Positions 1,132 through 21,879 of a DNA stretch of 23,508 nucleotides are shown here, piece after piece (the first letter of the stretch is position 1; each line of letters begins with the position of its first letter). The position numbers and the translations under genes are program-made. The notes beneath the pieces are model-generated. The model was not told where the DNA came from. It worked only from the letters and a program-made list of their open reading frames with translations, and searched no databases. Source of the DNA: a virus (Duplodnaviria; Heunggongvirae; Uroviricota; Caudoviricetes); IMG/VR virus record IMGVR_UViG_2663763227_000016. One strand, given 5' to 3'.

Positions 1132-1357
1132 CTTCCAGTATCCTCTTCAAAGCAGGGTGATCTGTGGCGATCACCTCCGGCTTGTTTACCATTCCGACAA
1201 AGCGAGCTTGCGGATCCACTCGCCAGCGTCTTCCAACTTTTTTGGGGAGAGGAAATATCATTCCGGCTTTAGCGTATTTACTTAACGTACTCGGAGTAGG
1301 GACCGGTTCACTGAATTCCTCTTTTGCCCACTCAGTGAGCAGAATAAGTCTTGCCAT
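1109..1357 (-). CDS. xis: Excisionase-like protein (Xis)
   Basis: 82-aa basic ORF whose 3' end overlaps the int start by 23 nt, the classic int-xis arrangement. The ribosome-binding site is weak and the call rests on position and size, not on a recognised motif. Confidence 0.5.
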   Translation of the reverse strand: MARLILLTEWAKEEFSEPVPTPSTLSKYAKAGMIFPLPKKVGRRWRVDPQARFVGMVNKPEVIATDHPALKRILEDGAPAKI

Positions 1358-1421
1358 GAGCGTCGTTCGCTAATCATGGTCGCCGCCACTATAGCTGGTG
1401 GGCAACGACCGGGGTTGAACA

Positions 1422-3893: not shown

Positions 3894-3985
3894 TTTGTTT
3901 TACCTCATTACAGATTTAAGGGTGAACAAATCCCTGCCATTGCTGGCATATAAGAATGAAATCGGATGTTTATTACGGAACTGTT

Positions 3986-4177
3986 TTAAAGACCTGCCGG
4001 GATTTCGCTATTATCCTGGTGAATAACTTTATCGACAGGGTAACAGTTACCGGGAATTTTCTGTTCGGTTGCTGCAGTCACACACTCCTGCATTGTCCTG
4101 TGAACACTGACTGCAATATCAACTGGCTCTCCGGAAACAAGAAAAACTGTCAGAACAAGTGCAAATGCTGTATTCAT
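3986..4177 (-). CDS. ydfD: YdfD-like small membrane protein (reported prophage lysis protein)
   Basis: 63-aa ORF (MNTAFALVLTVFLVSGEP...) with a hydrophobic N-terminus. Its ATG overlaps the dicB stop in an ATGA junction (4174-4177), indicating translational coupling. Gene order matches dicB-ydfD of the K-12 Qin prophage. Confidence 0.65.
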   Translation of the reverse strand: MNTAFALVLTVFLVSGEPVDIAVSVHRTMQECVTAATEQKIPGNCYPVDKVIHQDNSEIPAGL

Positions 4178-4362
4178 TGCCAGCATCCTTTTTGTATCGG
4201 TCGTAAACGGGCCAGCATTGAAAGAATGCATATTTTATTTAATAACTCCCGTTCGTGTTTTCTCTTGTTAATGGCATCTTCAGTAAATACAGGGTTACTG
4301 ATAGTGACACCAATTTCAAAACAACCTTCAGACGTATTAACGTTTGGTAATAACGTTTCCAT
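4174..4362 (-). CDS. dicB: Cell division inhibitor DicB
   Basis: 62-aa ORF METLLPNVNTSEGCFEIGVTISNPVFTEDAINKRKHERELLNKICILSMLARLRPIQKGCWQ, which I recognise as DicB. GAGGA lies 7 nt upstream of the ATG at 4362, and the gene sits directly downstream of the DicF sequence. Confidence 0.85.
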   Translation of the reverse strand: METLLPNVNTSEGCFEIGVTISNPVFTEDAINKRKHERELLNKICILSMLARLRPIQKGCWQ

Positions 4363-4528
4363 TATCGCGTCCTCAACAATGAATTTTGTGATGCGGTGCC
4401 TGGTGCCTCCAGGTGACGTTAACCAGTTAACAATTAACGCCGGATACAGAGAATCCACCCATAACACTGTTTTTGGTTTTAACTGTTCCGCGTGCGCTTA
4501 GCCGCATTCACTGCATCACAAAATTCAC

Positions 4529-4586
4529 TTTAAAAAGGGTGGCAGAGCAGTCACGGAGTAGAACTGATGCCACCAAAGACTACACA
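4529..4586 (-). ncRNA. dicF: DicF small regulatory RNA (ftsZ-targeting), processed from the operon transcript
   Basis: The minus strand reads ...GTAGTCTTTGGTGGCATCAGTTCTACTCCGTGACTGCTCTGCCACCCTTTTTAAAG, nearly identical to my recollection of K-12 DicF. It has the long-range stem GGTGGCA/TGCCACC followed by a U-run. Ends are approximate (+/-5 nt). Confidence 0.8.
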
Positions 4587-4911
4587 TGGATATTGTGGCG
4601 GGGCTGTCACTTAAGCGTATGGTCAGCCTGACAACCCGGTGTCCTCAAGGGGAAGGAATAACCCCGCCATACTTACCGCCGCGCCATTTCGCGGATTGCC
4701 ACAACCGGAAGCGCACGGTCGAATTAAATTTAACGACAAAGTACAGAGAGACGAGCTTCTCCGTGTGCTTTCGCGTTATGCTCTGACTTTTCAGAGAAAT
4801 ATCCTTTCAGTAAACTGTCAGTGCCGGATGTTCACCCGTGTCCGGCGCACGCACTCCACTTCACCCGTGGAGAACTCCTTAATTACCAACCTTAGCTTCG
4901 TTGGTTAGCTA

Positions 4912-5201: not shown

Positions 5202-5558
5202 TTACTCGAGAGGAAATTGGTTATGAGTACAATCAAGTTTTCTTGCCCAGAATGTGGTGGCGAAGTCTTTGACACATCCTTTAAGCCGCAGGGCTCTGAC
5301 AGTTTCGCGGGAGCCATCTGCAAAAATTGTGGTCACCTTGTAACTGAAGATGAGTCCTCGCAGTTCGATGACGAAATCGTTGACAATATCTTCGGTGCAC
5401 TCACCAGAGACTTTCTGAAGTAAAGGCGCATACCGCTTAGTTACCGCTCTGATAATTCTTACCTGTCCGGCAATGGCGCTGATGTCAATATAAAGCGCCA
5501 TTGCTGCTTCTTTGCCGATCCCGGGATGCCTTCCATTCTGATGTTTGACTTCGCCCAC
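5202..5558 (-). CDS. Hypothetical protein, possibly the ydfA/ydfB-equivalent of the dicB-type operon (alternative to the plus-strand zinc-ribbon ORF)
   Basis: 118-aa ORF starting at GTG 5558 with GAGGA 7 nt upstream, in the operon orientation. It sits in the codon-aligned antisense frame of a plausible plus-strand gene, which often stays open artefactually. Confidence 0.3.
   Translation of the reverse strand: MGEVKHQNGRHPGIGKEAAMALYIDISAIAGQVRIIRAVTKRYAPLLQKVSGECTEDIVNDFVIELRGLIFSYKVTTIFADGSRETVRALRLKGCVKDFATTFWARKLDCTHNQFPLE
5223..5423 (+). CDS. Putative small zinc-ribbon protein (CPECGG-x18-CKNCG), antisense to the early left operon
   Basis: 66-aa ORF with GAGAGGAA 7 nt upstream of the ATG, paired CxxC motifs, an acidic C-terminus and ordinary E. 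coli codon choice. It conflicts with the in-register minus-strand ORF 5202-5558; only one of the two is likely real. Confidence 0.4.
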   Translation: MSTIKFSCPECGGEVFDTSFKPQGSDSFAGAICKNCGHLVTEDESSQFDDEIVDNIFGALTRDFLK

Positions 5559-6358: not shown

Positions 6359-6613
6359 ATGAACCAGAAAACACTTGAAGATGTAATCAAAACTGTTCGC
6401 GTTGCTGTTGTGGCCGACGTTTGTGGTGTCAGCCAAAGAGCAATCTATAAATGGATGGATAACGGAAAATTGCCTCGCACAGAATATACCGGCGAAACAA
6501 ATTACGCTGAAAAAATCGCTCTTGCATCAAACGGATTATTTTCTGCCGATGCAATTTTAACTATTGGCAGGAATAAAACTACTACGAAAAAGCTGATGGG
6601 AGTTGATTCATGA
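6359..6613 (+). CDS. Cro-like HTH regulator (YdaS/DicC-like)
   Basis: 84-aa ORF MNQKTLEDVIKTVRVAVVADVCGVSQRAIYKWMDNGKLP..., with GAGGG 5 nt upstream of the ATG. It is divergent from the repressor, and its stop overlaps the next ATG (ATGA at 6610-6613). Confidence 0.7.
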   Translation: MNQKTLEDVIKTVRVAVVADVCGVSQRAIYKWMDNGKLPRTEYTGETNYAEKIALASNGLFSADAILTIGRNKTTTKKLMGVDS

Positions 6614-7035
6614 AAATCAAGCATGAACACATCCGCATGGCGATGAATGCCTGGGCGCATCCGGACGGCGAAAAAGTACCGGCTGCGAAAATTACCAAAG
6701 CGTATTTCGAGCTGGGAATGACGTTCCCGGAACTGTATGACGACAGCCATCCGGAAGCCCTGGCCCGTAATACCCAGAAAATTTTCCGTTGGCTGGATAA
6801 AGACACCCCTGATGCTGTTGAAAAAATGCAGGCTCTGTTACCGGCGATCGAAAAGGCGATGCCGCCTTTGCTGGTGGCCCGTATGCGCAGCCACAGTTCT
6901 GAATATTACCGTGAGATCGTCGAACGGAGGGATCGGCTGGTGAAGGATGTCGATGATTTTGTTGCGTCAGCGGTTGTTTTGTATGACCAGATGAATCGCG
7001 GCGGCCCGGCAGGGAATGCTGTGGTGATGCACTAA
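6610..7035 (+). CDS. YdaT-like protein (proposed CII functional analogue / toxic when overexpressed)
   Basis: 141-aa ORF beginning MKIKHEH, which I recall as the YdaT N-terminus. It is translationally coupled to the Cro-like gene; the order repressor / Cro-like / YdaT-like matches racR-ydaS-ydaT of Rac. Confidence 0.6.
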   Translation: MKIKHEHIRMAMNAWAHPDGEKVPAAKITKAYFELGMTFPELYDDSHPEALARNTQKIFRWLDKDTPDAVEKMQALLPAIEKAMPPLLVARMRSHSSEYYREIVERRDRLVKDVDDFVASAVVLYDQMNRGGPAGNAVVMH

Positions 7036-7057
7036 AAGCACGGTGTTCGGGGGGGTT

Positions 7058-8020
7058 ATGAGCAGCAAGCTTCATGGTCTTGTCTGGGAAGGGTGCGCCT
7101 TCACCGGCATGATCTTATCCAGGGTGGCGGTTATGGCCCGTCTTGCAGACTACAGCAATGACGAGGGCGTGTCATGGCCTGCCATTGAAACTATCCGGCG
7201 TCAGATCGGTGCAAGAAGTGAATCCACAGTGAAATCGGCTATTGCAGAACTGGCGAAAGAGGGCTGGCTGACGAAGGAAGAGCGTAAGGTCGGTGGGCGT
7301 AATGTAAGCAATATCTATCGGCTTAATGTGGAAAAACTCGAAGCAGCTGCGGCGGCGGCGCGTGAGTCATATAAACCGAAAAGAAAAATTAGCCCGGCAA
7401 AAAATGACCCGTTAACAGTTGACCCGTCAAATATTGACCCCTCAACGGTTGACCCGTCAAATTTTGATGGATCAACTGTTGATAAAAAACTGCCGATTAG
7501 GGGGGCGATGATTGACCCCGATCCGTCAGTATTAAAACCTGATCCGTCAGATAAAAGATCTTCTTGTCCGGACGCTTCGCAACCGGACCCGCAGACGGCT
7601 GAACAGGATTTTTTAACCCGACACCCTGACGCGGTTGTGTTCAGTGCGAAAAAACGCCAGTGGGGAAGTCAGGAAGATTTGGTGTGCGCACAGTGGATCT
7701 GGGGACGAATCGTGAGTCTTTACGAGCAGGCGGCCAGCTATGATGGCGAGATCACTAGACCGAAAGAACCCAACTGGACAGCATGGGCCAATGACGTTCG
7801 CACAATGCGGATGCTGGATGGCAGAACTCACAGACAAATTTGTGAAATGTTTGGGCGTCTCCAGCGGGATTCGTTCTGGGTAAAAAACATCATGAGTCCG
7901 GCAAAACTCCGGGAAAAATGGGATGAACTGGTTATCCGCCTGGGGCGTTCGCCTGCGCAGCGTTGCGTGAATCACATTTCTGAACCGGACACTGAAATAC
8001 CGCCGGGATTCAGGGGGTGA
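7058..8020 (+). CDS. Replication initiation protein (O-like / YdaU-like) containing the origin iterons
   Basis: ORF with an N-terminal winged-helix-like region and a central pentapeptide-repeat stretch (TVDPS NIDPS TVDPS NFDGS TVD) encoded by 15-bp direct repeats. It is followed by a DnaC-like loader. Start chosen at ATG 7058 after a G-run; the six-frame ORF track begins the ORF at 7043. Confidence 0.7.
   Translation: MSSKLHGLVWEGCAFTGMILSRVAVMARLADYSNDEGVSWPAIETIRRQIGARSESTVKSAIAELAKEGWLTKEERKVGGRNVSNIYRLNVEKLEAAAAAARESYKPKRKISPAKNDPLTVDPSNIDPSTVDPSNFDGSTVDKKLPIRGAMIDPDPSVLKPDPSDKRSSCPDASQPDPQTAEQDFLTRHPDAVVFSAKKRQWGSQEDLVCAQWIWGRIVSLYEQAASYDGEITRPKEPNWTAWANDVRTMRMLDGRTHRQICEMFGRLQRDSFWVKNIMSPAKLREKWDELVIRLGRSPAQRCVNHISEPDTEIPPGFRG
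7404..7490 (+). repeat. Replication origin iterons: about six tandem 15-bp units (TTGACCCGTCAAnnn), followed by GATC-containing repeats
   Basis: Direct repeats at 7404, 7419, 7434, 7449, 7464 and 7479, all inside the replication gene. GATCCGTCAG occurs twice further downstream (about 7517-7550). Confidence 0.65.
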
Positions 8021-8026
8021 CGTGTC

Positions 8027-8773
8027 ATGAAAAACATTGCGGCAGTTGGGGTTCTTGAACGTATTCGCAGACTTGCACCACAGGGGTCGGTTCCACCGTA
8101 CCGGACGGTGGAGGAGTGGCGGGAATGGCAACTTGCTGAAGGACGAAAACGCAGCGAGGAGATTAACCGCCAGAATCGCCAGTTGCGGGTGGAAAAAATC
8201 CTGAATCGTTCGGGCATCCAGCCTCTGCACAGCAAATGCTCGTTTGCAAATTATCAGGTGCAGAACGACGGGCAAAAATACGCGCTGAGCCAGGCCAAAT
8301 CCATAGCTGACGAACTGATGACCGGGTGCACGAATTTTGTGTTCAGCGGTAAAACCGGCACCGGGAAAAATCACCTTGCAGCGGCGATGGGCAACCGGCT
8401 GATGGTGAAGGGGCGCAGCGTGATTATCGTCACCGTGTCTGACGTCATGAGCGTGTTGCATGACAGCTACGACAACGGCAAATCCGGGGAAAAATTTTTA
8501 CAGGAGCTTTGCGGGGTTGATTTGCTGGTCCTGGATGAAATAGGCGTTCAGCGGGAGACGAAAAACGAGCAGGTGGTATTGCACCAGATAATTGATCGCC
8601 GGACAGCATCACTGTGCAGTGTCGGGATGTTAACAAACCTGAATCATGCCGCAATGAGTACGCTTCTTGGTGAGAGGATTATGGACCGCATGACCATGAA
8701 CGGTGGTCGATGGGTGACGTTTAACTGGGATAGCTGGCGTCCAAATGTCAGCAATATGAGGGTTGTGAAGTAA
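8027..8773 (+). CDS. DnaC-like replicative helicase loader (IstB-like AAA+ ATPase)
   Basis: 248-aa ORF with Walker A (FSGKTGTGKNHLAAAMG) and Walker B (LLVLDEIG) motifs, immediately downstream of the replication initiator. Confidence 0.85.
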   Translation: MKNIAAVGVLERIRRLAPQGSVPPYRTVEEWREWQLAEGRKRSEEINRQNRQLRVEKILNRSGIQPLHSKCSFANYQVQNDGQKYALSQAKSIADELMTGCTNFVFSGKTGTGKNHLAAAMGNRLMVKGRSVIIVTVSDVMSVLHDSYDNGKSGEKFLQELCGVDLLVLDEIGVQRETKNEQVVLHQIIDRRTASLCSVGMLTNLNHAAMSTLLGERIMDRMTMNGGRWVTFNWDSWRPNVSNMRVVK

Positions 8774-8794
8774 TTTTGTCCGGAGGAAATTTTA

Positions 8795-9565
8795 ATGGAA
8801 ACCGTATCTGACGCACTGAAAGCACTGAAAAAAGCCTCTTCACATGTGGTGGCAGCTCGCCTTGGAATCAGTCGTGAAGAGGCTGTCAACGAGCTGTGGG
8901 AACTCAAAAGAAAAGGCGTCGTTGATAAAACTGGTCACACCTGGTTTCTGGCTGGCGAAGGTGAATCCCGGGTAACCGAAGAGCGGCCAGTAAAATCTGA
9001 AGCACAGGATATGCTGACCGGGGAGGTCGAACAAAAAGTTACCGCAGACATGATGATTGAGTTTATCGGTCAGGATGGGGCTAAAACGTGTGAGGAACTG
9101 GCGGGTAAGTTCGGTGTCAGTACTCGCAAGGTTGCTTCCACGCTGGCGGTGGTAACCGCAACGGGGCGGCTGGCACGCGTTAATCAGAACGGTAAATTTC
9201 GTTACTGCATGCCGGGCGATAATTTACCAGCAGAGCCGAAAGCCGCGCTGGTAACGGAAAGTGATGGTAAGGCCTTTCCTCAGCCAGCAGGTGCTGCGTT
9301 ACCAGGCCGGGAAGCCGCAACACAGGAAGAAATTAAAACAGAAACTGTGGCGGACATTGTGCAGTCGTTGCCATCGTTTACCGAAACGCAAGCAGATGAG
9401 CTGATTTTTCCGTCCCTGCGCAGGGCAAACCTGGCGCTGCGCAGGGCGAAAAGTGATGTTCAGAAGTGGGAGCGAGTCTGCGCCGCGCTGCGGGAGCTGA
9501 ACAAGCACCGGGATATTGTTCGACAGATTACTGATTCTTCCCGCCGTGTTGTATCGGAAAAGTGA
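8795..9565 (+). CDS. Hypothetical phage protein with two winged-helix-like repeats
   Basis: 256-aa ORF with GGAGGA 7 nt upstream of the ATG. Two internally similar segments resemble each other (LGISREEAVNELWELKRKGVV and CEELAGKFGVSTRKVASTLAVV). No function recognised. Confidence 0.6.
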   Translation: METVSDALKALKKASSHVVAARLGISREEAVNELWELKRKGVVDKTGHTWFLAGEGESRVTEERPVKSEAQDMLTGEVEQKVTADMMIEFIGQDGAKTCEELAGKFGVSTRKVASTLAVVTATGRLARVNQNGKFRYCMPGDNLPAEPKAALVTESDGKAFPQPAGAALPGREAATQEEIKTETVADIVQSLPSFTETQADELIFPSLRRANLALRRAKSDVQKWERVCAALRELNKHRDIVRQITDSSRRVVSEK

Positions 9566-9580
9566 TTGCCGGAGGCGCTT

Positions 9581-10006
9581 ATGGCAAAAGTATTTACACA
9601 AGAAGAGCGGGAAAAAATTAAAGGGCAGGTTGTTGAACTTGTACGTCTGAGCGGTCGCGAGACGTTACGGCAACTGGAAGCCAAGACAGGTGCGACAAGA
9701 TATCTGATGAGCGTTCTTGCCAGAGAGCTGGTTGCCAGTGGCGATGTATACGACTCTGGTTACGGGTTATTCCCGTCTGAACAGGCGCGTAAGGACTGGC
9801 AAAATGCTCGCAAAAAACTCTCAAGGGCAAAGGTGAAGAAACCTGCAGTGGTTGATCCGGACCTTATCTGGTCGTTACCAGACGGCGAAATACGCCGCTA
9901 CGACAGGCGCCTGAATATAATCTGTCGCGAGTGCCGGAAGAGCGAAGCTATGCAGCGTGTACTGGCATTTTATCAAGGAAATGTTAGGTATTTTAGACGT
10001 TACTAG
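9581..10006 (+). CDS. Hypothetical protein
   Basis: 141-aa ORF with GGAGG 7 nt upstream of the ATG at 9581; the six-frame ORF track starts 15 nt earlier at 9566. Basic C-terminus with a CRECRK motif. Confidence 0.5.
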   Translation: MAKVFTQEEREKIKGQVVELVRLSGRETLRQLEAKTGATRYLMSVLARELVASGDVYDSGYGLFPSEQARKDWQNARKKLSRAKVKKPAVVDPDLIWSLPDGEIRRYDRRLNIICRECRKSEAMQRVLAFYQGNVRYFRRY

Positions 10007-10159
10007 ATTAAAGAGCATTAGTTCAGATGTGAATTGACATTTTCATGGCGCAGGGTAGAGCCAGCGTGGTTGTCCGCTTTGCGTCAAAACCAGATATTAC
10101 CAGATTTAGACATATATTCCCGATAGACCTGCTCTGATGCTACACTCTGTGCTATTTTC

Positions 10160-10846
10160 ATGACCCCAATAAAAATATTTATGACTATTGCTGATTTCAA
10201 ACGGCCTAAATTGGAGCTCCCAAACGGGGCAAACAAACTACTACTGCACTCTTGCTGTGCTCCATGTTCCGGTGAAGTGATGGAGGCGCTTCAGGCCTCG
10301 AGAATCGACTACACCATCTTTTTCTACAACCCGAACATTCATCCTCAGAAAGAGTATTTAATTCGTAAGGATGAAAATATTCGCTTTGCTGAACAACACG
10401 GCGTGCCGTTTATCGATGCTGATTACGACACCGACAACTGGTTTGAACGTGCCAAAGGAATGGAATGGGAGCCTGAGAGGGGGATCCGTTGTACCATGTG
10501 TTTTGACATGCGTTTTGAGCGGACAGCGTTGTACGCTGCTGAAAATGGTTTCAGTGTGATCAGCAGTTCACTGGGCATTTCACGCTGGAAAAATATGCAG
10601 CAGGTTAACGAGTGTGGGCGGCGAGCTGTTGCGCATTATCCGGGTATGGTGTACTGGGATTATAACTGGCGCAAGCAGGGCGGCTCGTCCCGTATGATTG
10701 AAATCAGCAAGCGCGAAAAATTCTATCAGCAGGAATATTGTGGCTGTGTGTATTCTCTGCGCGATACCAATCTACACCGCAAATCTCAGGGACGCCCTCT
10801 TATCAAAATTGGCCAACTCCACTACGGAAAAGAAGAGAAGGAGTGA
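10160..10846 (+). CDS. QueH-like epoxyqueuosine reductase (DUF208 family) moron
   Basis: 228-aa ORF with the N-terminal [11 protein letters not shown] motif I recognise from DUF208/QueH, plus further Cys residues (CTMCFD, CGCVY). There is no clear ribosome-binding site at either candidate start (10160 or 10181). Confidence 0.6.
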
Positions 10847-11083
10847 TTTTATGGATCACCTTTCTGATTGATTTCATATTGGCGAGGTGACGTGAGTTAA
10901 GTAGAATGGCTGCGGGTGCTTGAGGCTATCTGTCTCAGGCATGAACACTGAAAGGCAGATAGAGAAAAGCCCCAGTTAACATTTCGCGTCCTGCAAGACG
11001 CTTAACATTAATCTGAGGCCCAATCTATGTCTCACAAATGTAGGTTAGCCTCTTACGTGCCGAAAGGCAAGGGGAAGCAGGCT

Positions 11084-11239
11084 ATGAAGCAGCAAAAGGC
11101 GATGTTAATCGCCCTGATCGTCATCTGTTTAACCGTCATAGTGACGGCACTGGTAACGAGGAAAGACCTCTGCGAGGTACGACTCCGAACCGGCCAGACG
11201 GAGGTCGCTGTCTTCACAGCTTACGAACCTGAGGAGTAA
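11084..11239 (+). CDS. hokD: Hok/Gef-family type I toxin (HokD/RelF-like)
   Basis: 51-aa ORF MKQQKAMLIALIVICLTVIVTALVTRKDLCEVRLRTGQTEVAVFTAYEPEE, near-identical to Gef/RelF as I recall them. GGGGAAG ribosome-binding site; an in-frame upstream extension (from 11027) resembles a mok-type leader. Confidence 0.85.
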   Translation: MKQQKAMLIALIVICLTVIVTALVTRKDLCEVRLRTGQTEVAVFTAYEPEE

Positions 11240-11308
11240 GAGACCTGGCGGGGGAGAAATCCCTCGCCACCTCTGATGTGTCAGGCATCCTCAACGCACC
11301 CGCACTTA

Positions 11309-11337
11309 ACCCGCTTCGGCGGGTTTTGTTTTTTTCT
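11309..11337 (+). terminator. Rho-independent terminator downstream of hok
   Basis: ACCCGC-TTCG-GCGGGT hairpin followed by TTTGTTTTTTT. Confidence 0.7.
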
Positions 11338-11406
11338 GGCATTCTGGTTTACAATTCGCACGTCAGCCTGAACACCTGACACCTGCTGCGCCAGCAGAGA
11401 AAACAG

Positions 11407-11679
11407 ATGGCGCACAAAACCAAATTTCACAATTCTGATACCGACCTTGCCATCCGGCATGGGCGGCGTTCACACGCATTTAAAACCGACTGGTACCAAC
11501 ACCCACCATGTACTGAAGAACAGGCCGAATGGCTAATTCATAACTACCGCAGACGCGGATACGAGATTAAGAAAGCCCTCAGCCTCGATTATCGTCACTG
11601 GATAATCTCCGTCAGGCTTCCTTACTCTGAACGCCCACCGCGTCCGTCCCGCACATTCCAGCAACGCATCTGGAGGTAA
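11407..11679 (+). CDS. Hypothetical small protein (possibly rem-like by position)
   Basis: 90-aa ORF lying between the hok gene and the DUF968-like gene, as rem does in Qin. Weak ribosome-binding site; identity not recognised from sequence. Confidence 0.45.
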   Translation: MAHKTKFHNSDTDLAIRHGRRSHAFKTDWYQHPPCTEEQAEWLIHNYRRRGYEIKKALSLDYRHWIISVRLPYSERPPRPSRTFQQRIWR

Positions 11680-11680
11680 C

Positions 11681-12736
11681 GTGCGGGTATTACTTCGACC
11701 TGTTCTGGTACCGGAACTCGGGCTGGTGATCGTTAAGCCGGGCCGTGAATCCATGCCGGTATTCCACAATACCCGGGTACTGGTGGAGCCGGAACCGAAA
11801 AGCATGCGTAATCTGCCGTCCGGGGTCGTTCCTGCCGTTCGCCAGCCGCTGGCGGAGGATAAATCATTACTGCCATTTTTCAGCGACGAACGAGTGATTC
11901 GTGCTGCTGGTGGCGCTGGCGCATTGTCTGACTGGTTACTGCGCCATGTTAAATCCTGCCAGTGGCCACACGGCGATTATCACCACAGTGAAACCGTCAT
12001 TCACCGTTATGGTACCGGCGCAATGGTGTTGTGCTGGCACTGCGACAACCAGCTGCGCGACCAGACCTCCGAATCACTCGGGCAACTTGCTCACCAAAAC
12101 CTGTCTGCATGGATGATTGACGTCATACGCCATGCAATGAATGGCTCGCAGGAACGGGAATTATCGCTGGCTGAATTATCCTGGTGGGCGGTCCGCAATC
12201 AGGTGGCGGACGCGCTACCGGAAGCGGTATTACGTCGTTCGCTGGGGTTGCGTGCGGAAAAAATCCGCTCAATGTACCGTGAAAGCGACATCGTACCGGG
12301 AGAGCAGACCGCCACCAGCATACTGAAGCAGCGCACAAAAAATCTTGCGCCGCTGCCTCACGCCCACCAGCAAAACCCGCCACAGGAAAAGACGGTGGTC
12401 AGCATTGCCGTTGATCCGGAGTCACCGGCTCAGTATCTCCAGCGCCAGAAATCACAACGGGAAGAGATGCCTGTATACACGCGTTGGGTAAAAACGCAGA
12501 AATGCATGACGTGTGGCAATCAGGCAGATGATCCGCATCACATCATTGGTCATGGACTGGGAGGGATGGGAACAAAGGCTGATGATTTGTTTGTTATTCC
12601 GCTGTGCCGTAAATGCCATAGCGAACTACACGCCGGGGTAAAAGATTTTGAAGAAAAACACGGCAGCCAGCTGTTGTTGCTGAGTCGTTTTTTAATGCAC
12701 GCGAGAAATTCGGGTGTTCTGAAGTGGAAAGCATAA
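11681..12736 (+). CDS. DUF968-like phage protein (YdfU-like) with a C-terminal HNH-like Cys/His cluster
   Basis: 351-aa ORF starting at GTG 11681 with GGAGG 5 nt upstream. C-terminal CMTCGN...HHIIGHG...CRKCHSELH motif. Its stop abuts the rusA ATG (TAAATG). Confidence 0.7.
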   Translation: MRVLLRPVLVPELGLVIVKPGRESMPVFHNTRVLVEPEPKSMRNLPSGVVPAVRQPLAEDKSLLPFFSDERVIRAAGGAGALSDWLLRHVKSCQWPHGDYHHSETVIHRYGTGAMVLCWHCDNQLRDQTSESLGQLAHQNLSAWMIDVIRHAMNGSQERELSLAELSWWAVRNQVADALPEAVLRRSLGLRAEKIRSMYRESDIVPGEQTATSILKQRTKNLAPLPHAHQQNPPQEKTVVSIAVDPESPAQYLQRQKSQREEMPVYTRWVKTQKCMTCGNQADDPHHIIGHGLGGMGTKADDLFVIPLCRKCHSELHAGVKDFEEKHGSQLLLLSRFLMHARNSGVLKWKA

Positions 12737-13102
12737 ATGACTGAACGCATAGAATTTGTTTTGCCTTACCCGCCAACGGTGAACACTTACTGGCGACGTC
12801 GTGGCAGCACATATTTTGTATCAAAAGTCGGTGAGCGTTATCGCCGTGATGTGGCGCTTATTGTTCGCCAGCAGCAACTGAAATTAAACCTGTCCGGAAG
12901 GCCGGCAATAGAAATTATTGCAGAGCCACCGGATAAGCGCCGTCGTGACCTGGACAATATCCTGAAGGCACCACTGGATGTACTGACGCATGCGGGGCTG
13001 CTCATAGACGACGAGCAGTTTGATGAAATTAATATTGTGCGCGGTCAGCTTGTTCCTGGTGGGCGGTTGGGGATAAAAATCACAGAACTGGAGTACGCAT
13101 GA
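12737..13102 (+). CDS. rusA: Holliday junction resolvase RusA
   Basis: 121-aa ORF containing YPPTVNTYW...RRRDLDNILKAPLDVLTHAGLLIDDEQ...GGRLGIKITELE, closely matching RusA as I recall it. Confidence 0.9.
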   Translation: MTERIEFVLPYPPTVNTYWRRRGSTYFVSKVGERYRRDVALIVRQQQLKLNLSGRPAIEIIAEPPDKRRRDLDNILKAPLDVLTHAGLLIDDEQFDEINIVRGQLVPGGRLGIKITELEYA

Positions 13103-13788
13103 ATAACCAGTATTTACAGTTTGTTCGTGAGCAACTCATGATTGCCACCGCCGATTTGAGTGGATCAACAAAAGGGCAGCTTGAGGCCTGGCAGGAGAAT
13201 GCCATGTTTGATACAGGGCGTTACAGGCGTAAAAAAATCCGGTACCGCGATGAAGTGACTGGAAAAATGATAACGCGGGATAATCCACCAATCCCGGGAA
13301 AGCAATCGCTGGCGAAGGGGGTGTCAATTCCTCTCGTCAGTCCGGTTGAGTTTTCGACATCATCGTGGCGGCGGGCTGTTCTGTCTCTTGAAGAACATCA
13401 TAAAGCCTGGTTGTTGTGGTGTTACAGCGGGAGTATTTGTTGGGAATATCAGATCGCGATAACGCAGTGGGTGTGGAATGAATTTAAAACCCGGTACGGC
13501 ACCAGAAAAATTGCAGGGAAAACGCAGGAGCGCGTGAAGAAGTTGATCTGGCTGGCGGCACAGGATGTCAGAGGATGGATTACCGGGTGTGAGGTCTACC
13601 AGAGACAGGAGCTTGCCAGACTGTGTGGAGTTAAGCCTGATAACTGGAGCCATAATTATGCGAACTACTGGCGTGAGATGTGCGATATTTTTAAGAGTCT
13701 CGATAGAGAATCTGTGATTTGCACCGTGAAAATAAGAGCGCAACAAAAAGCGACTTTTTCACGACGAGATATTGCAAAAGTCAATTAA
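13099..13788 (+). CDS. Putative late-gene antiterminator (Q-like), by position
   Basis: 229-aa ORF overlapping the rusA stop (ATGA), the last gene before a promoter-like TATAAAT box and a strong terminator. I could not match it to lambda Q by sequence. Confidence 0.4.
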   Translation: MNNQYLQFVREQLMIATADLSGSTKGQLEAWQENAMFDTGRYRRKKIRYRDEVTGKMITRDNPPIPGKQSLAKGVSIPLVSPVEFSTSSWRRAVLSLEEHHKAWLLWCYSGSICWEYQIAITQWVWNEFKTRYGTRKIAGKTQERVKKLIWLAAQDVRGWITGCEVYQRQELARLCGVKPDNWSHNYANYWREMCDIFKSLDRESVICTVKIRAQQKATFSRRDIAKVN

Positions 13789-13849
13789 ATAGCGTACGTT
13801 TCGTATAAATCTGATATTTTGCCGATTTTGTACGCGATGGCAAAGTAAG

Positions 13850-13882
13850 AAAAAAAACTGCCGTCAGGCGGTTTTTTTTTAT
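13850..13882 (+). terminator. Intrinsic terminator (tR'-like) downstream of the Q-like gene
   Basis: A8-CTGCC-GTCA-GGCGG-T9: a short GC stem flanked by an A-run and a T-run, so potentially bidirectional. Confidence 0.65.
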
Positions 13883-14002
13883 GCCCAAAATCGCGTCAGT
13901 ACAGTAAACACGCTGGTGGTTGCGAATACGGGTCTTTCAGCTTGCTGGCTTTTTCGACAAGAGTTATTGGTATGTCACGTTAACCGGAAAAAGGAAAAAG
14001 AC

Positions 14003-14200
14003 ATGCTAAAACAGCAGGATATGACAGAAACCGCCAGAGTGGTGTTTAATGAATTAAGCGTTACCGAACCGGCGACAGTCGGGGAGATAGCGCAGAATAC
14101 TTACCTTTCACGCGAACGCTGCCAGTTAATACTGACTCAGCTGGTTATGGCGGGTCTGGCAGACTATCAGTTCGGTTGTTACAGACGCCTTCCGCAGTGA
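14003..14200 (+). CDS. Small hypothetical protein, possibly winged-helix, upstream of the methyltransferase
   Basis: 65-aa ORF MLKQQDMTETARVVFNELSVTEPATVGEIAQNTYLSRERCQLILTQLVMAGLADYQ... with AAGGAAAAAG upstream of the ATG. Confidence 0.45.
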   Translation: MLKQQDMTETARVVFNELSVTEPATVGEIAQNTYLSRERCQLILTQLVMAGLADYQFGCYRRLPQ

Positions 14201-14350
14201 AGGCTTTTTTATTTGTGGTAAATGGGCGGCTGGTGGGTGTTAGGGGCACTTACCAGCCATCTGCTCATGCGTTGGGTTCACAAGCAAACCTCAGGCCCAC
14301 TGCTTTGCGCAAAAGCAGAATGAGCCTATCAGAGACAGGCTTAATGATCC

Positions 14351-15400
14351 ATGCTTAATACTGTAAAAATATCCAGTTGTGAGTTAATCAACGCCGACTG
14401 CCTGGAATTTATCCGGTCGTTACCCGAAAATTCTGTTGACCTGATAGTCACGGACCCGCCGTACTTTAAAGTGAAGCCTGAGGGCTGGGATAACCAGTGG
14501 AAGGGCGACGATGATTACCTGAAGTGGCTGGACCAGTGTCTGGCGCAGTTCTGGCGGGTGCTGAAACCTGTCGGAAGTCTTTACCTGTTCTGTGGTCATC
14601 GCCTGGCATCTGATATCGAAATCATGATGCGTGAACGCTTCAGTGTGCTGAACCATATTATCTGGGCGAAGCCGTCCGGACGCTGGAACGGATGCAACAA
14701 GGAAAGCCTGCGGGCGTATTTCCCCGCCACAGAGCGCATTCTGTTCGCGGAACATTATCAGGGGCCGTATCGTCCGAAAGATGCCGGGTATGCGGCGAAG
14801 GGCAGTGCACTGAAACAGCATGTGATGGCCCCGCTGATTTCTTACTTTCGTGATGCGCGCGCTGCCCTGGGGATAACGGCAAAACAGATTGCAGATGCCA
14901 CAGGAAAGAAAAACATGGTGTCGCACTGGTTCAGTGCCAGTCAGTGGCAGCTACCGAACGAAAGCGATTATCTGAAATTACAGTCGCTGTTTGCCCGGGT
15001 GGCAGAAGAGAAACATCAGCGCGGTGAACTGGAAAAGCCCCACCACCAGCTGGTGGATACGTATACGTCACTGAACCGGCAGTATGTGGAGCTGCAGAGT
15101 GAATATAAGCATCTGCGGCGGTATTTTGGTGTGACGGCGCAGGTGCCGTACACGGATGTGTGGACACATAAACCGGTGCAGTTCTATCCCGGGAAACATC
15201 CGTGCGAAAAACCGGCAGAAATGCTGCAGCAGATAATCAGCGCAAGCAGTCGTCCGGGTGACCTGGTTGCAGATTTTTTTATGGGCTCAGGTTCAACGGT
15301 AAAAGTGGCACTGGCGCTCGGGCGTCGTGCGATTGGCGTTGAACTGGAGACCGGACGTTTTGAGCAGACAGTCAGGGAAGTTCAGGATTTAATCGTTTGA
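14351..15400 (+). CDS. DNA methyltransferase, beta-class amino-methyltransferase (N6-adenine or N4-cytosine), no restriction partner
   Basis: 349-aa ORF with the catalytic DPPY motif (LIVTDPPYF) near the N-terminus and the AdoMet-binding FxGxG motif (DFFMGSGST) near the C-terminus, the beta-class order. No endonuclease gene is adjacent. Confidence 0.85.
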   Translation: MLNTVKISSCELINADCLEFIRSLPENSVDLIVTDPPYFKVKPEGWDNQWKGDDDYLKWLDQCLAQFWRVLKPVGSLYLFCGHRLASDIEIMMRERFSVLNHIIWAKPSGRWNGCNKESLRAYFPATERILFAEHYQGPYRPKDAGYAAKGSALKQHVMAPLISYFRDARAALGITAKQIADATGKKNMVSHWFSASQWQLPNESDYLKLQSLFARVAEEKHQRGELEKPHHQLVDTYTSLNRQYVELQSEYKHLRRYFGVTAQVPYTDVWTHKPVQFYPGKHPCEKPAEMLQQIISASSRPGDLVADFFMGSGSTVKVALALGRRAIGVELETGRFEQTVREVQDLIV

Positions 15401-15449
15401 AACGGATGAGATTGCAGAATTAATTACGCACCATTATTATTCTGCTCCC

Positions 15450-15525
15450 GGCCCTTTAGCTCAGTGGTGAGAGCGAGCGACTCATAATCGCCAGGTCGCT
15501 GGTTCAAATCCAGCAAGGGCCACCA
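15450..15525 (+). tRNA. tRNA with CAU anticodon (Ile2-lysidine type or Met; ileZ-like)
   Basis: Manual cloverleaf: acceptor GGCCCTT/AAGGGCC, D-arm GCTC-AGTGGTGA-GAGC, anticodon loop CTCATAA, T-arm GCTGG-TTCAAAT-CCAGC, encoded CCA. Confidence 0.85.
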
Positions 15526-15532
15526 TCACATA

Positions 15533-15609
15533 CCGCCATTAGCTCATCAGGAAAGAGCGCCAGCTTTCGAAGCTGGTTGCGCGGAGTTCGGGTCCCCGAA
15601 GGCGGTCCA
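15533..15609 (+). tRNA. Possible tRNA-Arg (anticodon UCG), degenerate or pseudo-tRNA
   Basis: Manual fold: D-arm GCTC-ATCAGGAAA-GAGC, perfect anticodon stem CCAGC/GCTGG with loop TTTCGAA, encoded CCA. It has mismatches in the acceptor and T stems, a non-canonical T-loop (TTCGGGT) and starts with C. Confidence 0.45.
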
Positions 15610-15622
15610 TTATCTGTATCCT

Positions 15623-15699
15623 GCGTTGTTAGCTCAGCCGGACAGAGCAATTGCCTTCTAAGCAATCGGTCACTGGTTCGAATCCAGTACAACGCGCCA
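15623..15699 (+). tRNA. tRNA-Arg (anticodon UCU, reads AGA)
   Basis: Canonical cloverleaf: acceptor GCGTTGT/ACAACGC, D-arm GCTC-AGCCGGACA-GAGC, anticodon stem ATTGC/GCAAT with loop CTTCTAA, T-arm ACTGG-TTCGAAT-CCAGT, encoded CCA. Confidence 0.9.
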
Positions 15700-15743
15700 C
15701 ACTTATTTTCCCTGGCTCGCTTTTGCGGGCTTTTTTTAAATGT

Positions 15744-15958
15744 CTCACAATTCAGGCGGTTGACTGTTGTCTGGTTTGCGGGGAGTTTGTTAAAAGAAAC
15801 TGGCATGGTGAATCCCCCTGTGCGGAGGGGCAATCAGCGAGTAGGTATATGGGATAATCGCGGATTCAGGTGCTGGTACTGAATTCACCGGGAGGCACCC
15901 GGCACCATGCAATGGCACATAGCGCCACTCTCCAGCCCCTCTCCGGAGGGGCTTTTCT
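15744..15958 (+). repeat. Structured non-coding module, copy A (TTGACT box, two hairpins, terminator-like GCCCCTC-TCCG-GAGGGGC-TTTT)
   Basis: Shares with copy B, at a 468-bp offset, the blocks CTCACAATTCAG, CATGGTGAATCCCCCTG.GCGGAGGGGC, CACCGGGAGGCACCCGGCACCATG and CCCCTCTCCGGAGGGGCTTT. Confidence 0.6.
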
Positions 15959-16147
15959 GTGCCGGATACATCACAGTTTCTGGAACCTTAGGTACTACAG
16001 TATCAGTCAGGGTGCTATATTTTCAGATGTGATGAAAGCCTGTCAGCAGGCAGGGCGTATCGGAAATGACCCAGTAGAGAAAACGTTGACTCAGATACCG
16101 GTGCTGAGTTACCGGGAAACCGGCATCACATGACCGCTATCCTTCCA

Positions 16148-16174
16148 GGCCCATCCGCTCCGGTGGGCCTTTTT
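16148..16174 (+). terminator. Terminator-like hairpin between the two repeat modules
   Basis: GGCCCA-(10-nt loop)-TGGGCC followed by TTTTT. Confidence 0.5.
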
Positions 16175-16211
16175 ACTGCAGAAAACAGGTTCCCCGTTAA
16201 ATGCTATGTTG

Positions 16212-16444
16212 CTCACAATTCAGTAAGTTGACAGTTGCCTGTCAGACTGGGCATTTGTTAAAAAAATTTCGCATGGTGAATCCCCCTGAGCGGAGGGGCG
16301 ACTGGTGACGGTATAATCTCTGATTATCAAAACGAGAATGACGCGGGTTTAGTGGCACCGGGCTGAACTCACCGGGAGGCACCCGGCACCATGTGCATGA
16401 TGATACAGATACGCGGCTTTAGCCCCTCTCCGGAGGGGCTTTCT
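16212..16444 (+). repeat. Structured non-coding module, copy B (TTGACA box, GGTATAAT, hairpins, terminator-like hairpin)
   Basis: Diverged tandem copy of module A. It contains TTGACA (16229-16234) and a consensus-like TATAAT (16309-16314). Confidence 0.6.
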
Positions 16445-16673
16445 TATGGACAAAAAAAGCCCGCGCTGGGAGACGCGGGCGGCAAGGAATAAACAATAAA
16501 ACGTGAAGTAATATTTCAGCTGGCGAATAATACCCCATAGTAATCACTCTGCGCAACTGCGCGGTCTTTTTCGAATTGCGGGCTGTAGTCTCCCTTCTGC
16601 CATTGTCCTGTAACTTCCGGACTTCAGCCTGCTCCTTATCTGACTCACAACATTATCCCGCCCGGGAGGATTC

Positions 16674-18527
16674 ATGGCATTTAAACACTATGACGTGGTC
16701 AGGGCGGCATCGCCGTCAGACCTTGCGAAACGACTGACACAAAAACTGAAGGAGGGCTGGCAGCCGTTTGGTAGTCCGGTGGCCATAACCCCTTATACCC
16801 TGATGCAGGCGATTGCAGCAGAAGGTGATGTGGTCGTCAGTGGTGCAACTGAGCCGGAGTGGTACTACGTCATCGTACTGGCCGGGCAATCCAATGCCAT
16901 GGCTTACGGTGAAGGGCTTCCGCTTCCGGATTCATACGATGCGCCCCATCCGCGCATTAAGCAACTGGCCCGTCGTAACACAGTGACTCCCGGTGGTGAA
17001 GTATGCGTATTTAACGACATCATTCCTGCTGACCATTGTCTGCATGATGTTCAGGATATGAGTACGATTAACCATCCCCGGGCTGACCTGAGCAAAGGGC
17101 AGTACGGCTGTGTCGGACAGGGCTTACATATTGCCAAAAAACTGCTTCCGTATATCCCTAATAATGCGGGGATCCTGCTGGTACCATGCTGTCGTGGTGG
17201 TTCGGCATTCACCCAGGGCACGGAGGGGACATTCAGCGAGTCCACGGGAGCCAGTCAGGATTCGGCTCGCTGGGGAGTGGGTAAGCCGTTATATCAGGAT
17301 CTGCTTTTCCGCACGAAGGCAGCATTGCAGAAAAACCCGAAAAACGTTTTGCTGGCGATATGCTGGATGCAGGGGGAATTCGATATGACGAATGCCAGTT
17401 ACGCCCAGCAGCCAGCAGCATTTCTTGCAATGGTACAGCAGTTCCGTGCTGACCTTGCCGGGCTGGCGGCGCAGTGTCACGGTGGAAGTCCGGCATCAGT
17501 CCCCTGGATTTGTGGCGACACGACATACGCGTGGAAACAAGAACACGGTACGCAATATGAAGTGGTATATGGTGCATATAAAGGTAAAGAATCCCAGCAG
17601 ATTTATTTTGTTCCCTTTATGACCGATGGTAGCGGAGTTAATACACCGACAAACAACCCGTCAGAAGATCCTGATATTGCCGGGTCTGGTTATTACGGTT
17701 CGGCATCCCGAACGAACAAAAACTGGGTATCATCAAATCGCCCGACGCATTTCAGCTCATGGGCGCGTCGTGGCATTATTCCCGATCGTATGGCAACTGC
17801 TATTCTGAACGTAGCCGGTCGCACCTTAGCCTTCATTAGTGGTAAGGCACCGGAAATCAAACCCTCGCCCGGCGGCGACACGCCATCGGGGCCGTCTGAA
17901 GATGCATCCATACGCACAATCTCCCTGTTGCCGACAGCCGGAGACGCTGCTGCGCAGGGCTGGAGCATTAAGAATGGCGGAATTCAGTTGTCAGATGGTG
18001 TATTTAAGATCACCAAGCAGAGCAATAAAGCCTGGTCCCTGACGCGCCCGGTGGATGACGCAGTCTCCCTGCTGACACGGGGTGGCAGACTGAGCTGTAA
18101 GTTTCGACTGTCAGGCGCACTGACCAACAACCAGTTCGGTCTGGGAATTTATCTGTATACCGATGTAGCGTTACCTGACGTCGTGGCGATGACCGGGACT
18201 GGTAACCCGTTCCTGATGTCGTTCTTCACCCAGACCACAGACGGCAAACTGAATCTGATGCATCACAAGAAAGCAGGAAACACAAAGTTGGGCGAGTTCG
18301 GGAATTACAGTAACGACTGGCAGACGCTGGAGCTGGTGTTCACCGCCGGCAGTGCCACGGTTACTCCGAAACTGAATGGAGTGGCTGGCCCGGCATTCCA
18401 GGTCATAAAAGACAGTCTGACACTGGGGCTGAATGCGCTGACGCTGACGGATATTACCAAAAATGCAGCGTATGGCGTTGAGATAGAAAGTCTGGTGCTG
18501 GAGATAAATGCACCGGCATCATCATAA
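16674..18527 (+). CDS. Prophage sialate O-acetylesterase (NanS-p-like; SGNH/SASA esterase with C-terminal domain)
   Basis: 617-aa ORF with GGGAGGA ribosome-binding site. It carries the SGNH-hydrolase GQSN block (VIVLAGQSNAMAYGEG), and its position (after tRNAs, before the lysis genes) is that of nanS-p in Stx-phage-like prophages. Confidence 0.75.
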   Translation: MAFKHYDVVRAASPSDLAKRLTQKLKEGWQPFGSPVAITPYTLMQAIAAEGDVVVSGATEPEWYYVIVLAGQSNAMAYGEGLPLPDSYDAPHPRIKQLARRNTVTPGGEVCVFNDIIPADHCLHDVQDMSTINHPRADLSKGQYGCVGQGLHIAKKLLPYIPNNAGILLVPCCRGGSAFTQGTEGTFSESTGASQDSARWGVGKPLYQDLLFRTKAALQKNPKNVLLAICWMQGEFDMTNASYAQQPAAFLAMVQQFRADLAGLAAQCHGGSPASVPWICGDTTYAWKQEHGTQYEVVYGAYKGKESQQIYFVPFMTDGSGVNTPTNNPSEDPDIAGSGYYGSASRTNKNWVSSNRPTHFSSWARRGIIPDRMATAILNVAGRTLAFISGKAPEIKPSPGGDTPSGPSEDASIRTISLLPTAGDAAAQGWSIKNGGIQLSDGVFKITKQSNKAWSLTRPVDDAVSLLTRGGRLSCKFRLSGALTNNQFGLGIYLYTDVALPDVVAMTGTGNPFLMSFFTQTTDGKLNLMHHKKAGNTKLGEFGNYSNDWQTLELVFTAGSATVTPKLNGVAGPAFQVIKDSLTLGLNALTLTDITKNAAYGVEIESLVLEINAPASS

Positions 18528-18612
18528 AAAGTGAGCCAGCCAAATGGAAGGTATCGTTAAACTCACCGGTAGTGTCAGTGGGTCGTCTGAGATGCCTGCA
18601 TGAGTTATCAGA

Positions 18613-18642
18613 GCCATCAGTACTTAACTGGTGGCTTTTTTT
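18613..18642 (+). terminator. Intrinsic terminator upstream of the lysis cassette
   Basis: GCCATCAG-TACTTAA-CTGGTGGC stem-loop followed by TTTTTTT. Confidence 0.6.
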
Positions 18643-18677
18643 ATTGTTGTCAGCTTCCGGATAACGGGAGACGGGGT

Positions 18678-18893
18678 ATGTACCAGATGGAAAAAATCAC
18701 AACAGGTGTGTCATACACCACGTCAGCGGTGGGAACGGGCTACTGGTTCCTGCAGTTGCTGGACAGGGTTTCCCCGTCTCAGTGGGCGGCAATAGGCGTG
18801 CTGGGGAGTCTGCTGTTTGGGCTGCTGACATATCTGACTAACCTGTATTTCAAAATCAGAGAGGACCGTCGTAAGGCTGCACGGGGAGAGTAA
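18678..18893 (+). CDS. Class II holin (phage-21 S21-type pinholin) with dual start (antiholin from 18678, holin from 18687)
   Basis: [71 protein letters not shown] matches S21 as I recall it. Two transmembrane segments and the M-x-x-M dual-start motif; the ribosome-binding site is a G-rich run (GGGAG/GGGG) just upstream of the first ATG. Confidence 0.85.
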
Positions 18894-18897
18894 TTCA

Positions 18898-19242
18898 ATG
18901 ACTCAAAACTATGAACTGATTGTGAAAGGGATCCGCAATTTTGAGAATAAAGTTACGGTAACTTTAGCGTTACGGGACAAAAAACGCTTTGACGGTGAAA
19001 TTTTTGACCTGGACATCTCGCTGGACCGTGTTGAAGGTGCCTCGCTGGAGTTTTATGAGGCAGCAGCCAGAAGGAGCATCAGACAGGTCTTCCTGGATGT
19101 TGCTGCCGGGTTATGTGAAGGGGATGAGCAGTCGCCGGAAAAGCGCCCCGTAATTTTAGAGGCGCAGGATGTGTTGATAACCTACAGAGGAAAACTACCG
19201 GGAATAATTACGGGTTCTCTGAAGAGTCCGCCGAAATGGTAA
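18898..19242 (+). CDS. Hypothetical protein inserted between holin and endolysin (possibly YdfR-like)
   Basis: 114-aa ORF starting 4 nt after the holin stop with GGAGAG upstream. Qin carries ydfR at the same position; the family assignment is from memory of gene order only. Confidence 0.5.
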   Translation: MTQNYELIVKGIRNFENKVTVTLALRDKKRFDGEIFDLDISLDRVEGASLEFYEAAARRSIRQVFLDVAAGLCEGDEQSPEKRPVILEAQDVLITYRGKLPGIITGSLKSPPKW

Positions 19243-19480
19243 TTTTACCAGCATATTTTTCATCCAGTAATACGGCAAGCCGCCTGAAAGAGTCTTGTTG
19301 TTCCTGAGACCATTTGGGATTGCATGATTCAAACTGGATTGATGCCAGCGTTGATTGCATCTGTTCCCTTGGAATTGAGAATGCCAGATATGAGAAGGCG
19401 ACGGTAAGGGTATTCACGTCTTCCCGAAGCCTGGAAATGCTGTCGAGCAACTCCTGTAGAGAAATGGTGTTATTGTCCAT
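19208..19480 (-). CDS. Hypothetical protein, antisense within the lysis cassette
   Basis: 90-aa ORF with GAGGA 8 nt upstream of its ATG (19480). Its 3' end overlaps the convergent 114-aa gene by 35 nt. It is divergent from the endolysin across a 105-bp region. Confidence 0.4.
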   Translation of the reverse strand: MDNNTISLQELLDSISRLREDVNTLTVAFSYLAFSIPREQMQSTLASIQFESCNPKWSQEQQDSFRRLAVLLDEKYAGKITISADSSENP

Positions 19481-19585
19481 AAATAATCCTCATGATTGTA
19501 TTGACCTGTTAGCAGCCTGAGGCAACAGGCTGGAACTGATAAACATATCTAGGGCTCAGAAACCGATAAATCCTGATAAATATCC

Positions 19586-20119: not shown

Positions 20120-20211
20120 GCAGAATATTTTGCTGAAAAATAAGGTATGGCCACGCGGGCGGATAACACGAAATCCTGCGAACTGGCGAAACGTAAGTGA
20201 ATAAAAGTAAA

Positions 20212-20248
20212 AACCCCGTTTGTTGGCACCAAGCGGGGTTTTGTGTTT
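20212..20248 (+). terminator. Terminator-like hairpin between endolysin and Rz
   Basis: CCCCGTTTG...CAAGCGGGG stem followed by TTTTGTGTTT. Confidence 0.5.
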
Positions 20249-20278
20249 CCTGACTCCGGAAAAGTCAAAGGAGAAAGT

Positions 20279-20416: not shown

Positions 20417-20417
20417 A

Positions 20418-21694: not shown

Positions 21695-21879
21695 AATGTT
21701 TCCCCATATTCAGTGTTGCTGATTTGTATTATCTGAAGTTGCTTTTACGTTAATTTGATGCAGATCAATTAATACGATACCTGCGTCATAATTGATTATT
21801 TCTCGTGGTTTGATGGCGTACACACATGTTGTGATAAACCTTATATAGATGATAATCATTATCATTTTCGTGGGTCCTT

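Follow-up and report, generated by a model that had tools for sequence, protein, structure and literature searches.

A queH cassette carried by prophages and IncF plasmids as a possible route to cobalamin-independent queuosine finishing in Escherichia coli

Introduction

A lambdoid prophage of Escherichia coli carries a gene that, by family, is a genuine and intact queH, and the same gene recurs in other prophages and on IncF plasmids as part of a small mobile cassette. The gene lies in a 23,508-nucleotide stretch of virus DNA (IMG/VR record IMGVR_UViG_2663763227_000016; Caudoviricetes), which we analyzed as a whole, refer to as the window, and number from its first letter. Our main reading, to which we give a probability of about 0.6, is that the cassette derives from a chromosome, moves with its own promoter among prophages and IncF plasmids, and encodes a functional QueH that would provide B12-independent finishing of queuosine (Q) beside the QueG of its host.

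E. coli cannot make cobalamin de novo. In tRNA Asp, Asn, His, and Tyr, QueA makes epoxyqueuosine at position 34 (oQ34); the reduction of oQ to Q by QueG depends on cobalamin (PMC4646009, citing Frey 1988). QueH is a cobamide-independent alternative to QueG (PMC6461909). The enzyme is thus already known, and it is annotated in RefSeq; its mobile setting is the less familiar part. A literature search turned up no paper that describes QueH on an E. coli prophage or plasmid, and the main QueH papers may mention it.

Results

The window aligns collinearly with a prophage that RefSeq annotates in E. coli AR_0013 (locus L001), matching it at 99.6% over 6599-21824 and at 94% over 1-3949. The AR_0013 prophage is lambdoid and has inserted next to ompW. 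The gene order begins with integrase, excisionase, exonuclease, dicB with DicF RNA, repressor and cro-like genes, YdaT, and the O-like and DnaC-like genes. It continues with DUF1627, DUF977, queH, hok/sok, DUF968/HNH, RusA, and the Q antiterminator, and then with a DNA methyltransferase, three tRNA genes, two STnc100 RNAs, a SASA esterase, lysis genes, and a Nu1-like gene. The preliminary description had placed queH in a nin-like region between replication genes and a hok toxin. Both statements were borne out: the prophage is lambdoid, replication genes (DnaC-like, DUF1627, and DUF977) lie upstream, and hok/mok/sok lies downstream.

The two immediate neighbors of queH form the borders of the slot in which it sits. 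On the left, the DUF977 gene (9566..10006, + strand; Pfam DUF977, E=1e-27) is the last replication-side gene, and it precedes queH in all of the prophage contexts examined. On the right, the hok/mok/sok type I toxin-antitoxin locus (10879..11239, + strand) is a neighbor that lies outside the cassette. Within this locus, Rfam places sok at 10914-11089 (120 bits) and the mok ORF spans 11027-11239; hokD is annotated in L001, and a promoter-like site is present on the hok side at 10879-10907. The three tRNA genes (15450-15699, + strand; CAT, Arg-TCG, and Arg-TCT) are found much farther along, downstream of the Q antiterminator and the DNA methyltransferase. ARAGORN calls the CAT tRNA Met, and RefSeq calls it Ile.

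Several other features of the window were recorded along the way. A DicF antisense sRNA (4537-4588, - strand; 61 bits) is encoded within the early leftward region, and the twin locus L001 has an adjoining dicB-like gene. Two copies of the STnc100 sRNA (15774-15964 and 16242-16451, + strand; 136 and 165 bits) are located between the three tRNA genes and the SASA/DUF1737 esterase gene. Stx phages carry stx at this STnc100/esterase position; the window has no stx gene there. After 21824 the window diverges from L001, with the window running into a Nu1-like small terminase gene (22098-22607) and L001 into an IS3 fragment and a group II intron. Four ORFs of 90 to 181 amino acids matched no Pfam family (11407-11679, +; 3956-4501, +; 5202-5558, -; 13916-14200, +). 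Of these, the first follows hok immediately, overlapping a RefSeq "hypothetical protein."

The queH gene lies in an ORF of 228 amino acids (10160-10846, + strand) that contains the CCAPC motif and offers two candidate start codons. The start is almost certainly ATG 10181 and not ATG 10160, judging from the conservation of the two codons. ATG 10181 is kept in all copies compared, and RefSeq begins the protein at this codon (WP_000150294.1, 221 amino acids, named "epoxyqueuosine reductase QueH"). We rejected ATG 10160 because it reads ATT in a diverged allele (L005) and because homologues begin at Met8 of the 228-amino-acid ORF, the residue to which the N termini of 19 homologues align. The coding sequence is then 10181..10846 (+ strand), 221 amino acids plus the stop, and encodes a cobalamin-independent epoxyqueuosine reductase family protein; the in-frame 5' extension at 10160..10180 (+ strand) is probably untranslated leader. 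The length of 228 amino acids given in the preliminary description is shortened to 221 on the grounds that ATG 10181 is conserved and that RefSeq agrees. The coordinates it gave, running from the stop of the preceding gene at 10006 to the queH stop at 10846, were accurate. So was its remark that the gene has no obvious ribosome-binding site, since no Shine-Dalgarno sequence precedes either ATG 10160 or ATG 10181.

The QueH/DUF208 assignment that had been proposed for this product stood up to a profile search. Pfam PF02677 (QueH) matched at E=2e-65 and 220.6 bits, against a gathering cutoff of 23.5, over profile positions 1 to 174 of 175, and the conserved cysteines and the predicted fold described below agree. 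The structure of T. maritima QueH (7lc5) was matched at E=4e-22, and the family as a whole comprises 4749 clusters (50% identity) at E≤1e-3. An NCBIfam hmmscan of the product gave no family match, though RefSeq names the protein QueH, so the RefSeq name must rest on evidence other than an NCBIfam model. In PHROGs, the product was assigned to phrog_3217, which is labeled "unknown function" and which our assignment identifies as QueH. The phrog_3217 profile (188 positions) begins only at residue 41 of the 228-amino-acid ORF. Judging from this late start, many phage annotations of phrog_3217 seem to begin at an internal Met and so lose the CCAPC motif.

Next, we examined the cysteine residues in an alignment of 33 diverse QueH members (33-72% identity, T. 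maritima included). Six cysteines, C25, C26, C104, C107, C187, and C189 in the 221-amino-acid numbering, were invariant in 33 of 33 sequences. Their T. maritima equivalents are C9, C10, C87, C90, C169, and C171 (CC, CxxC, and CGC). The six conserved cysteines reportedly bind a [4Fe-4S] cluster and an adjacent iron in the T. maritima structure. A seventh cysteine, C29 of CCAPC, is Cys in at least 90% of the 33 members, T. maritima being an exception with Asp13. An AlphaFold model built from a 20-sequence alignment was of moderate confidence (mean pLDDT 73.5, pTM 0.75). With this model, Foldseek returned T. maritima QueH at PDB ranks 1 to 5 (E=2e-9; TM 0.76, normalized to target), followed by matches to the TtuA, NcsA, TilS, and LarE group at E ~1e-4. 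The prophage protein resembles T. maritima QueH (PDB 7LC5/7LC7/9DEU) in family HMM, in the order of its six cysteines (CC...CxxC...CGC), and in predicted fold, and the presumed reaction, oQ34 to Q34, is the same. However, the two proteins are only ~30% identical, they differ at Cys29 versus Asp13, and the T. maritima gene belongs to the core genome whereas this one is prophage borne. From these features we infer that the product would be enzymatically active in E. coli.

The limits of the cassette were drawn by comparison with queH-less relatives. The mobile unit spans 10099..10848 (+ strand, ~750 bp), its right limit falls directly after the queH stop codon, and the minimal core common to the copies is 10132-10848. 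Phage Tritos has window positions 9578-10098 and 10849-11327, with a different cargo of 2 kb in between, and PPompW prophages match the hok side only. The Tritos cargo (L002 3528-5571) encodes a 444-amino-acid hypothetical protein on the opposite strand. In phage vB_EcoS-683R6, the cargo that follows the same DUF977 gene (L004 3510-6476) consists of kinase, FtsH-like, and S8 peptidase genes; this set may be a defense system, which is a guess from the annotation names. The suggestion that queH resembles a moron, that is, an insertable cargo unit, fits these comparisons, since related phages lack queH or hold other cargo in the slot. The GC content is 0.41 to 0.48 over 9950-10550, versus 0.50 to 0.57 in the flanking genes, and is 0.49 to 0.52 in the 3' half of queH. 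A search for terminal direct or inverted repeats of the transposon or integron kind found only short ones at chance level, none of them at the cassette limits.

At least four prophage contexts contain the cassette, as do IncF plasmids from Klebsiella and Salmonella. Phage HannyBb, the only deposited phage genome with this allele group, shares 10065-10852 and has different replication genes. The match to a Qin-like prophage of "E. coli strain B" also starts at 10065. A prophage with Thr and Gly tRNA genes and a 96% allele shares the whole query (10007-10900), and the 90%-identical allele (L005) shares 10132-10850 with unrelated sequence upstream. Among the plasmids, a Salmonella IncFII plasmid (L020 6001-6669) shares 10085-10850 and a Klebsiella IncF plasmid (L019 7001-7669) shares 10116-10853. 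On both of these conjugative plasmids queH is solitary among unrelated neighbors and is accompanied by the TGCTACACT element described below, and no phage genes are listed around it in the 13- to 15-kb stretches inspected. The strain B copy (L006, NZ_CP115178.1) is a 92.6% queH allele in a cryptic Qin-like prophage with dicC, hokD, and rem. For BL21(DE3) (NC_012971.2), the match was 52 nt long and lies beyond the cassette, and so this strain is without queH.

The closest relatives outside E. coli are chromosomal QueH proteins of Erwinia, Providencia, and Proteus, which are 82 to 87% identical over 201 aligned columns. These genes sit in the core genome: the Erwinia neighborhood reads purL-queH-glrK, and the Providencia gene lies between tmcA and purC. 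In a neighbor-joining tree (without support values), the mobile copies, prophage and plasmid together, formed one clade nested among Enterobacterales chromosomal sequences. In our preferred reading, the cassette was captured from an Enterobacterales chromosome. The mobile protein is like the chromosomal ones (those of Erwinia, Providencia, Proteus, Gibbsiella, and Photorhabdus) in identity, in length, and in N terminus, and upstream of the gene either TGCTACACT or TATACT lies at about the same distance. Chromosomal Enterobacterales QueH is typically the sole oQ reductase. In contrast to the chromosomal genes with their stable core neighborhoods, the prophage copy is accessory, mobile, and redundant with QueG.

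One chromosomal relative has a further feature of its neighborhood that we record here. In Gibbsiella, queH (L018 5001-5654) lies ~4 kb from yciB-yciC-(YkgJ-like)-ompW (7512-10570), and this ompW neighborhood is the one beside which the E. coli prophage is integrated; coincidence is possible. Aberrant excision from an ompW-adjacent chromosomal queH in the Gibbsiella order was considered as an origin and set aside; the gene sits in the middle of the prophage and not at an attachment end.

The cassette has a putative promoter of its own at 10117..10146 (+ strand), ending 34 nt before ATG 10181. Its layout is of the extended -10 type: TTCCCG at 10117-10122, an 18-nt spacer, TG at 10138-10139, and TACACT at 10141-10146. 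Across six mobile copies, whose DNA diverges by up to 17%, CTGATGCTACAC was invariant (6/6), and the full TGCTACACT was present in five; the exception, the 90% allele L005, ends in A (TACACA, not TACACT). TTCCCG was retained in four of the six. The same kind of element precedes queH on chromosomes. In Erwinia, TGCTACACT lies 31 nt before the ATG, and other chromosomal copies have -10-like hexamers 27 to 37 nt upstream: TATACT in Providencia, TGATATATT in Gibbsiella, and TACACT at about the same distance in one unassigned copy. In copy L011, TGCTAAAAT was seen by eye ~35 nt before the conserved Met. This pattern suggests that the -10-like element is the native promoter of queH and travels with the gene, in which case the lysogen would transcribe queH from it. 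A scan for the two-hexamer consensus called no sigma-70 promoter upstream of queH on the + strand.

The leader between this element and the start codon is AU rich (…AATAAAAATATTTATG). Most chromosomal relatives likewise have an AU-rich leader without a Shine-Dalgarno sequence, and Gibbsiella has one. A riboswitch or other RNA element upstream was considered and rejected: Rfam at gathering threshold was empty near queH, and when 9950-10260 was scanned permissively, the sole result was a chance microRNA match (E=0.14). The fold of the leader was no better than that of shuffled sequence (z=0.0).

On the + strand, no intrinsic terminator was found on either side of queH; the only one found lies at 11308-11325, after hok. 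Transcription could therefore run through from the early rightward operon, and this might supply most or all of the queH transcript. Such a transcript is the starting point for a different reading, which takes up the idea of the preliminary description that the gene tunes translation and in which queH, expressed only from the early operon after induction, turns host oQ-tRNA into Q-tRNA and so helps the phage, with its own tRNAs, to decode its messages in the lytic cycle. The gene does lie in the rightward early, nin-like region and shares its strand with the replication genes, with no terminator between them and no canonical promoter called, and the phage does have three tRNA genes. We nevertheless consider this reading unlikely. 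The phage tRNAs (CAT/Ile, Arg-TCG, and Arg-TCT) are not QueH substrates, the cassette is also found with other tRNA sets and on the IncF plasmids whose inspected stretches list no phage genes, the conserved -10-like element accompanies queH and stands before chromosomal copies as well, and related ompW prophages are without the gene.

The same evidence speaks against the link between queH and the phage tRNA genes that the preliminary description had drawn. Those tRNAs decode Ile-AUA and Arg codons, and none of them is a substrate of QueH, which acts on tRNA Asp, Asn, His, and Tyr; the same cassette is present in prophages with Thr and Gly tRNAs and on IncF plasmids. Since the cassette occurs beside other tRNA sets and on plasmids, its presence is independent of the tRNA genes or the translation program of this phage. 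A functional coupling of queH with the phage tRNA genes was thus rejected on two counts, the wrong anticodons and the occurrence of the cassette without them.

To see how widely the cassette is carried, we compared it with 5426 complete E. coli genomes. It was matched in 1032 of them, with 984 matches near full length and 704 at ≥99% identity, and the carriers include ST131 strains and one O157:H7 strain. queG was present in 5426 of 5426; because it is universal, any E. coli that carries queH has it as a second oQ reductase. A QueH-like sequence was also found on 302 plasmid records, of which 99 are from Klebsiella and 67 from Escherichia.

These counts could also be read as those of a neutral passenger, a housekeeping gene that entered by illegitimate recombination, hitchhikes with its carriers, and is useless in QueG-positive hosts. 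Universal queG means that the reaction is already covered, the 704 matches of 1032 at ≥99% identity fit recent clonal spread, and we know of no phenotype that separates oQ from Q in E. coli. However, the gene does not look neutral. Among five prophage alleles, dN/dS (Nei-Gojobori) was 0.04 to 0.08 at dS of up to 0.45, which indicates that queH has been under strong purifying selection while mobile. The ORF was intact in every copy inspected, all of the metal-ligand cysteines were kept, and the same minimal unit of promoter-like element plus ORF has been retained in unrelated prophages and IncF plasmids. Given these observations, the neutral reading is disfavored, and we regard it as improbable.

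Discussion

The reading that we prefer, a functional QueH in a mobile cassette that was taken from a chromosome, can be put as a series of steps. The product of 10181-10846 would be a functional iron-sulfur, cobalamin-independent QueH that converts the oQ34 of tRNA Asp, Asn, His, and Tyr to Q34. As payload, the ORF would share a compact ~750-bp cassette with the promoter-like element and a leader of 34 nt that lacks a Shine-Dalgarno sequence. This cassette would move among IncF plasmids and among lambdoid prophages, in which it occupies the slot bordered by DUF977 and hok/sok. Because QueG needs cobalamin and E. coli cannot make it, the cassette would give its carrier B12-independent finishing of Q when cobalamin is scarce.

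Why such a cassette would spread is a separate matter, on which our proposal is a tentative one, held with much less confidence than the preferred reading itself. For QueG-positive Enterobacteriaceae in nature, cobalamin may often be out of reach; QueG would then stall at oQ, and finishing Q may have a real fitness value. Since no phenotype known to us distinguishes oQ from Q, the fitness benefit of Q over oQ is hypothetical.

A new function for the protein, on a substrate other than tRNA-oQ, for example in 7-deazaguanine modification of DNA or in phage defense or counterdefense, is highly unlikely: DNA modification through the 7-deazaguanine pathway is known from phages (PMC6884629), and the slot holds other cargo in the related phages vB_EcoS-683R6 and Tritos, but the protein is 82 to 87% identical to housekeeping QueH with its ligand residues all kept, Pfam scans of the window ORFs and the annotated 25-kb twin locus L001 contained no other queuosine or 7-deazaguanine genes (no DpdA/Tgt, QueC, QueD, or QueE), and PADLOC gave no match for QueH. 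Membership of a defense system was likewise rejected for queH together with its neighbors, for which PADLOC was empty save for weak HTH-type noise on the DUF1627 protein. Unlike the preQ0/DpdA clusters of phages, queH is a single last-step, tRNA-specific gene that comes without DpdA or preQ0 synthesis genes.

A mobile QueH beside QueG can be compared with several known arrangements. The two enzymes serve the same pathway step in the same cells, as queG is found in every one of the E. coli genomes. They are unlike each other in fold, which is unrelated, and in cofactor: QueG is cobalamin dependent (PMC4646009) and QueH is not (PMC6461909). Staphylococcus aureus has both QueG and QueH, with different expression profiles (PMC13443448). 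There, as in the E. coli carriers, two enzymes with different cofactors are expected to share the last step within a single cell. Both S. aureus genes, however, are reported as part of the ordinary genome (PMC13443448), whereas in E. coli queH is carried by a prophage or plasmid and occurs in only about one-fifth of strains. The cassette is also like phage morons and auxiliary metabolic genes in that a host-derived metabolic gene sits between phage modules and is polymorphic among relatives. It is unlike phage morons in that queH has no terminator of its own and the same cassette occurs on plasmids too.

Taken together, these results suggest that about one-fifth of complete E. coli genomes, those that match the cassette, carry a second, cobalamin-independent enzyme for finishing Q that is under strong purifying selection, while QueG is kept in all of them. 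If the cassette does spread because finishing Q has fitness value, strong purifying selection on a mobile and seemingly "redundant" enzyme of the last step would supply, for the first time, genetic evidence against the equivalence of Q and oQ in vivo, and the tRNA modification status of natural E. coli strains would vary with their mobile elements. Carriers and noncarriers of the cassette would offer a simple strain comparison for how much oQ versus Q matters and for whether B12 limits QueG in natural niches.
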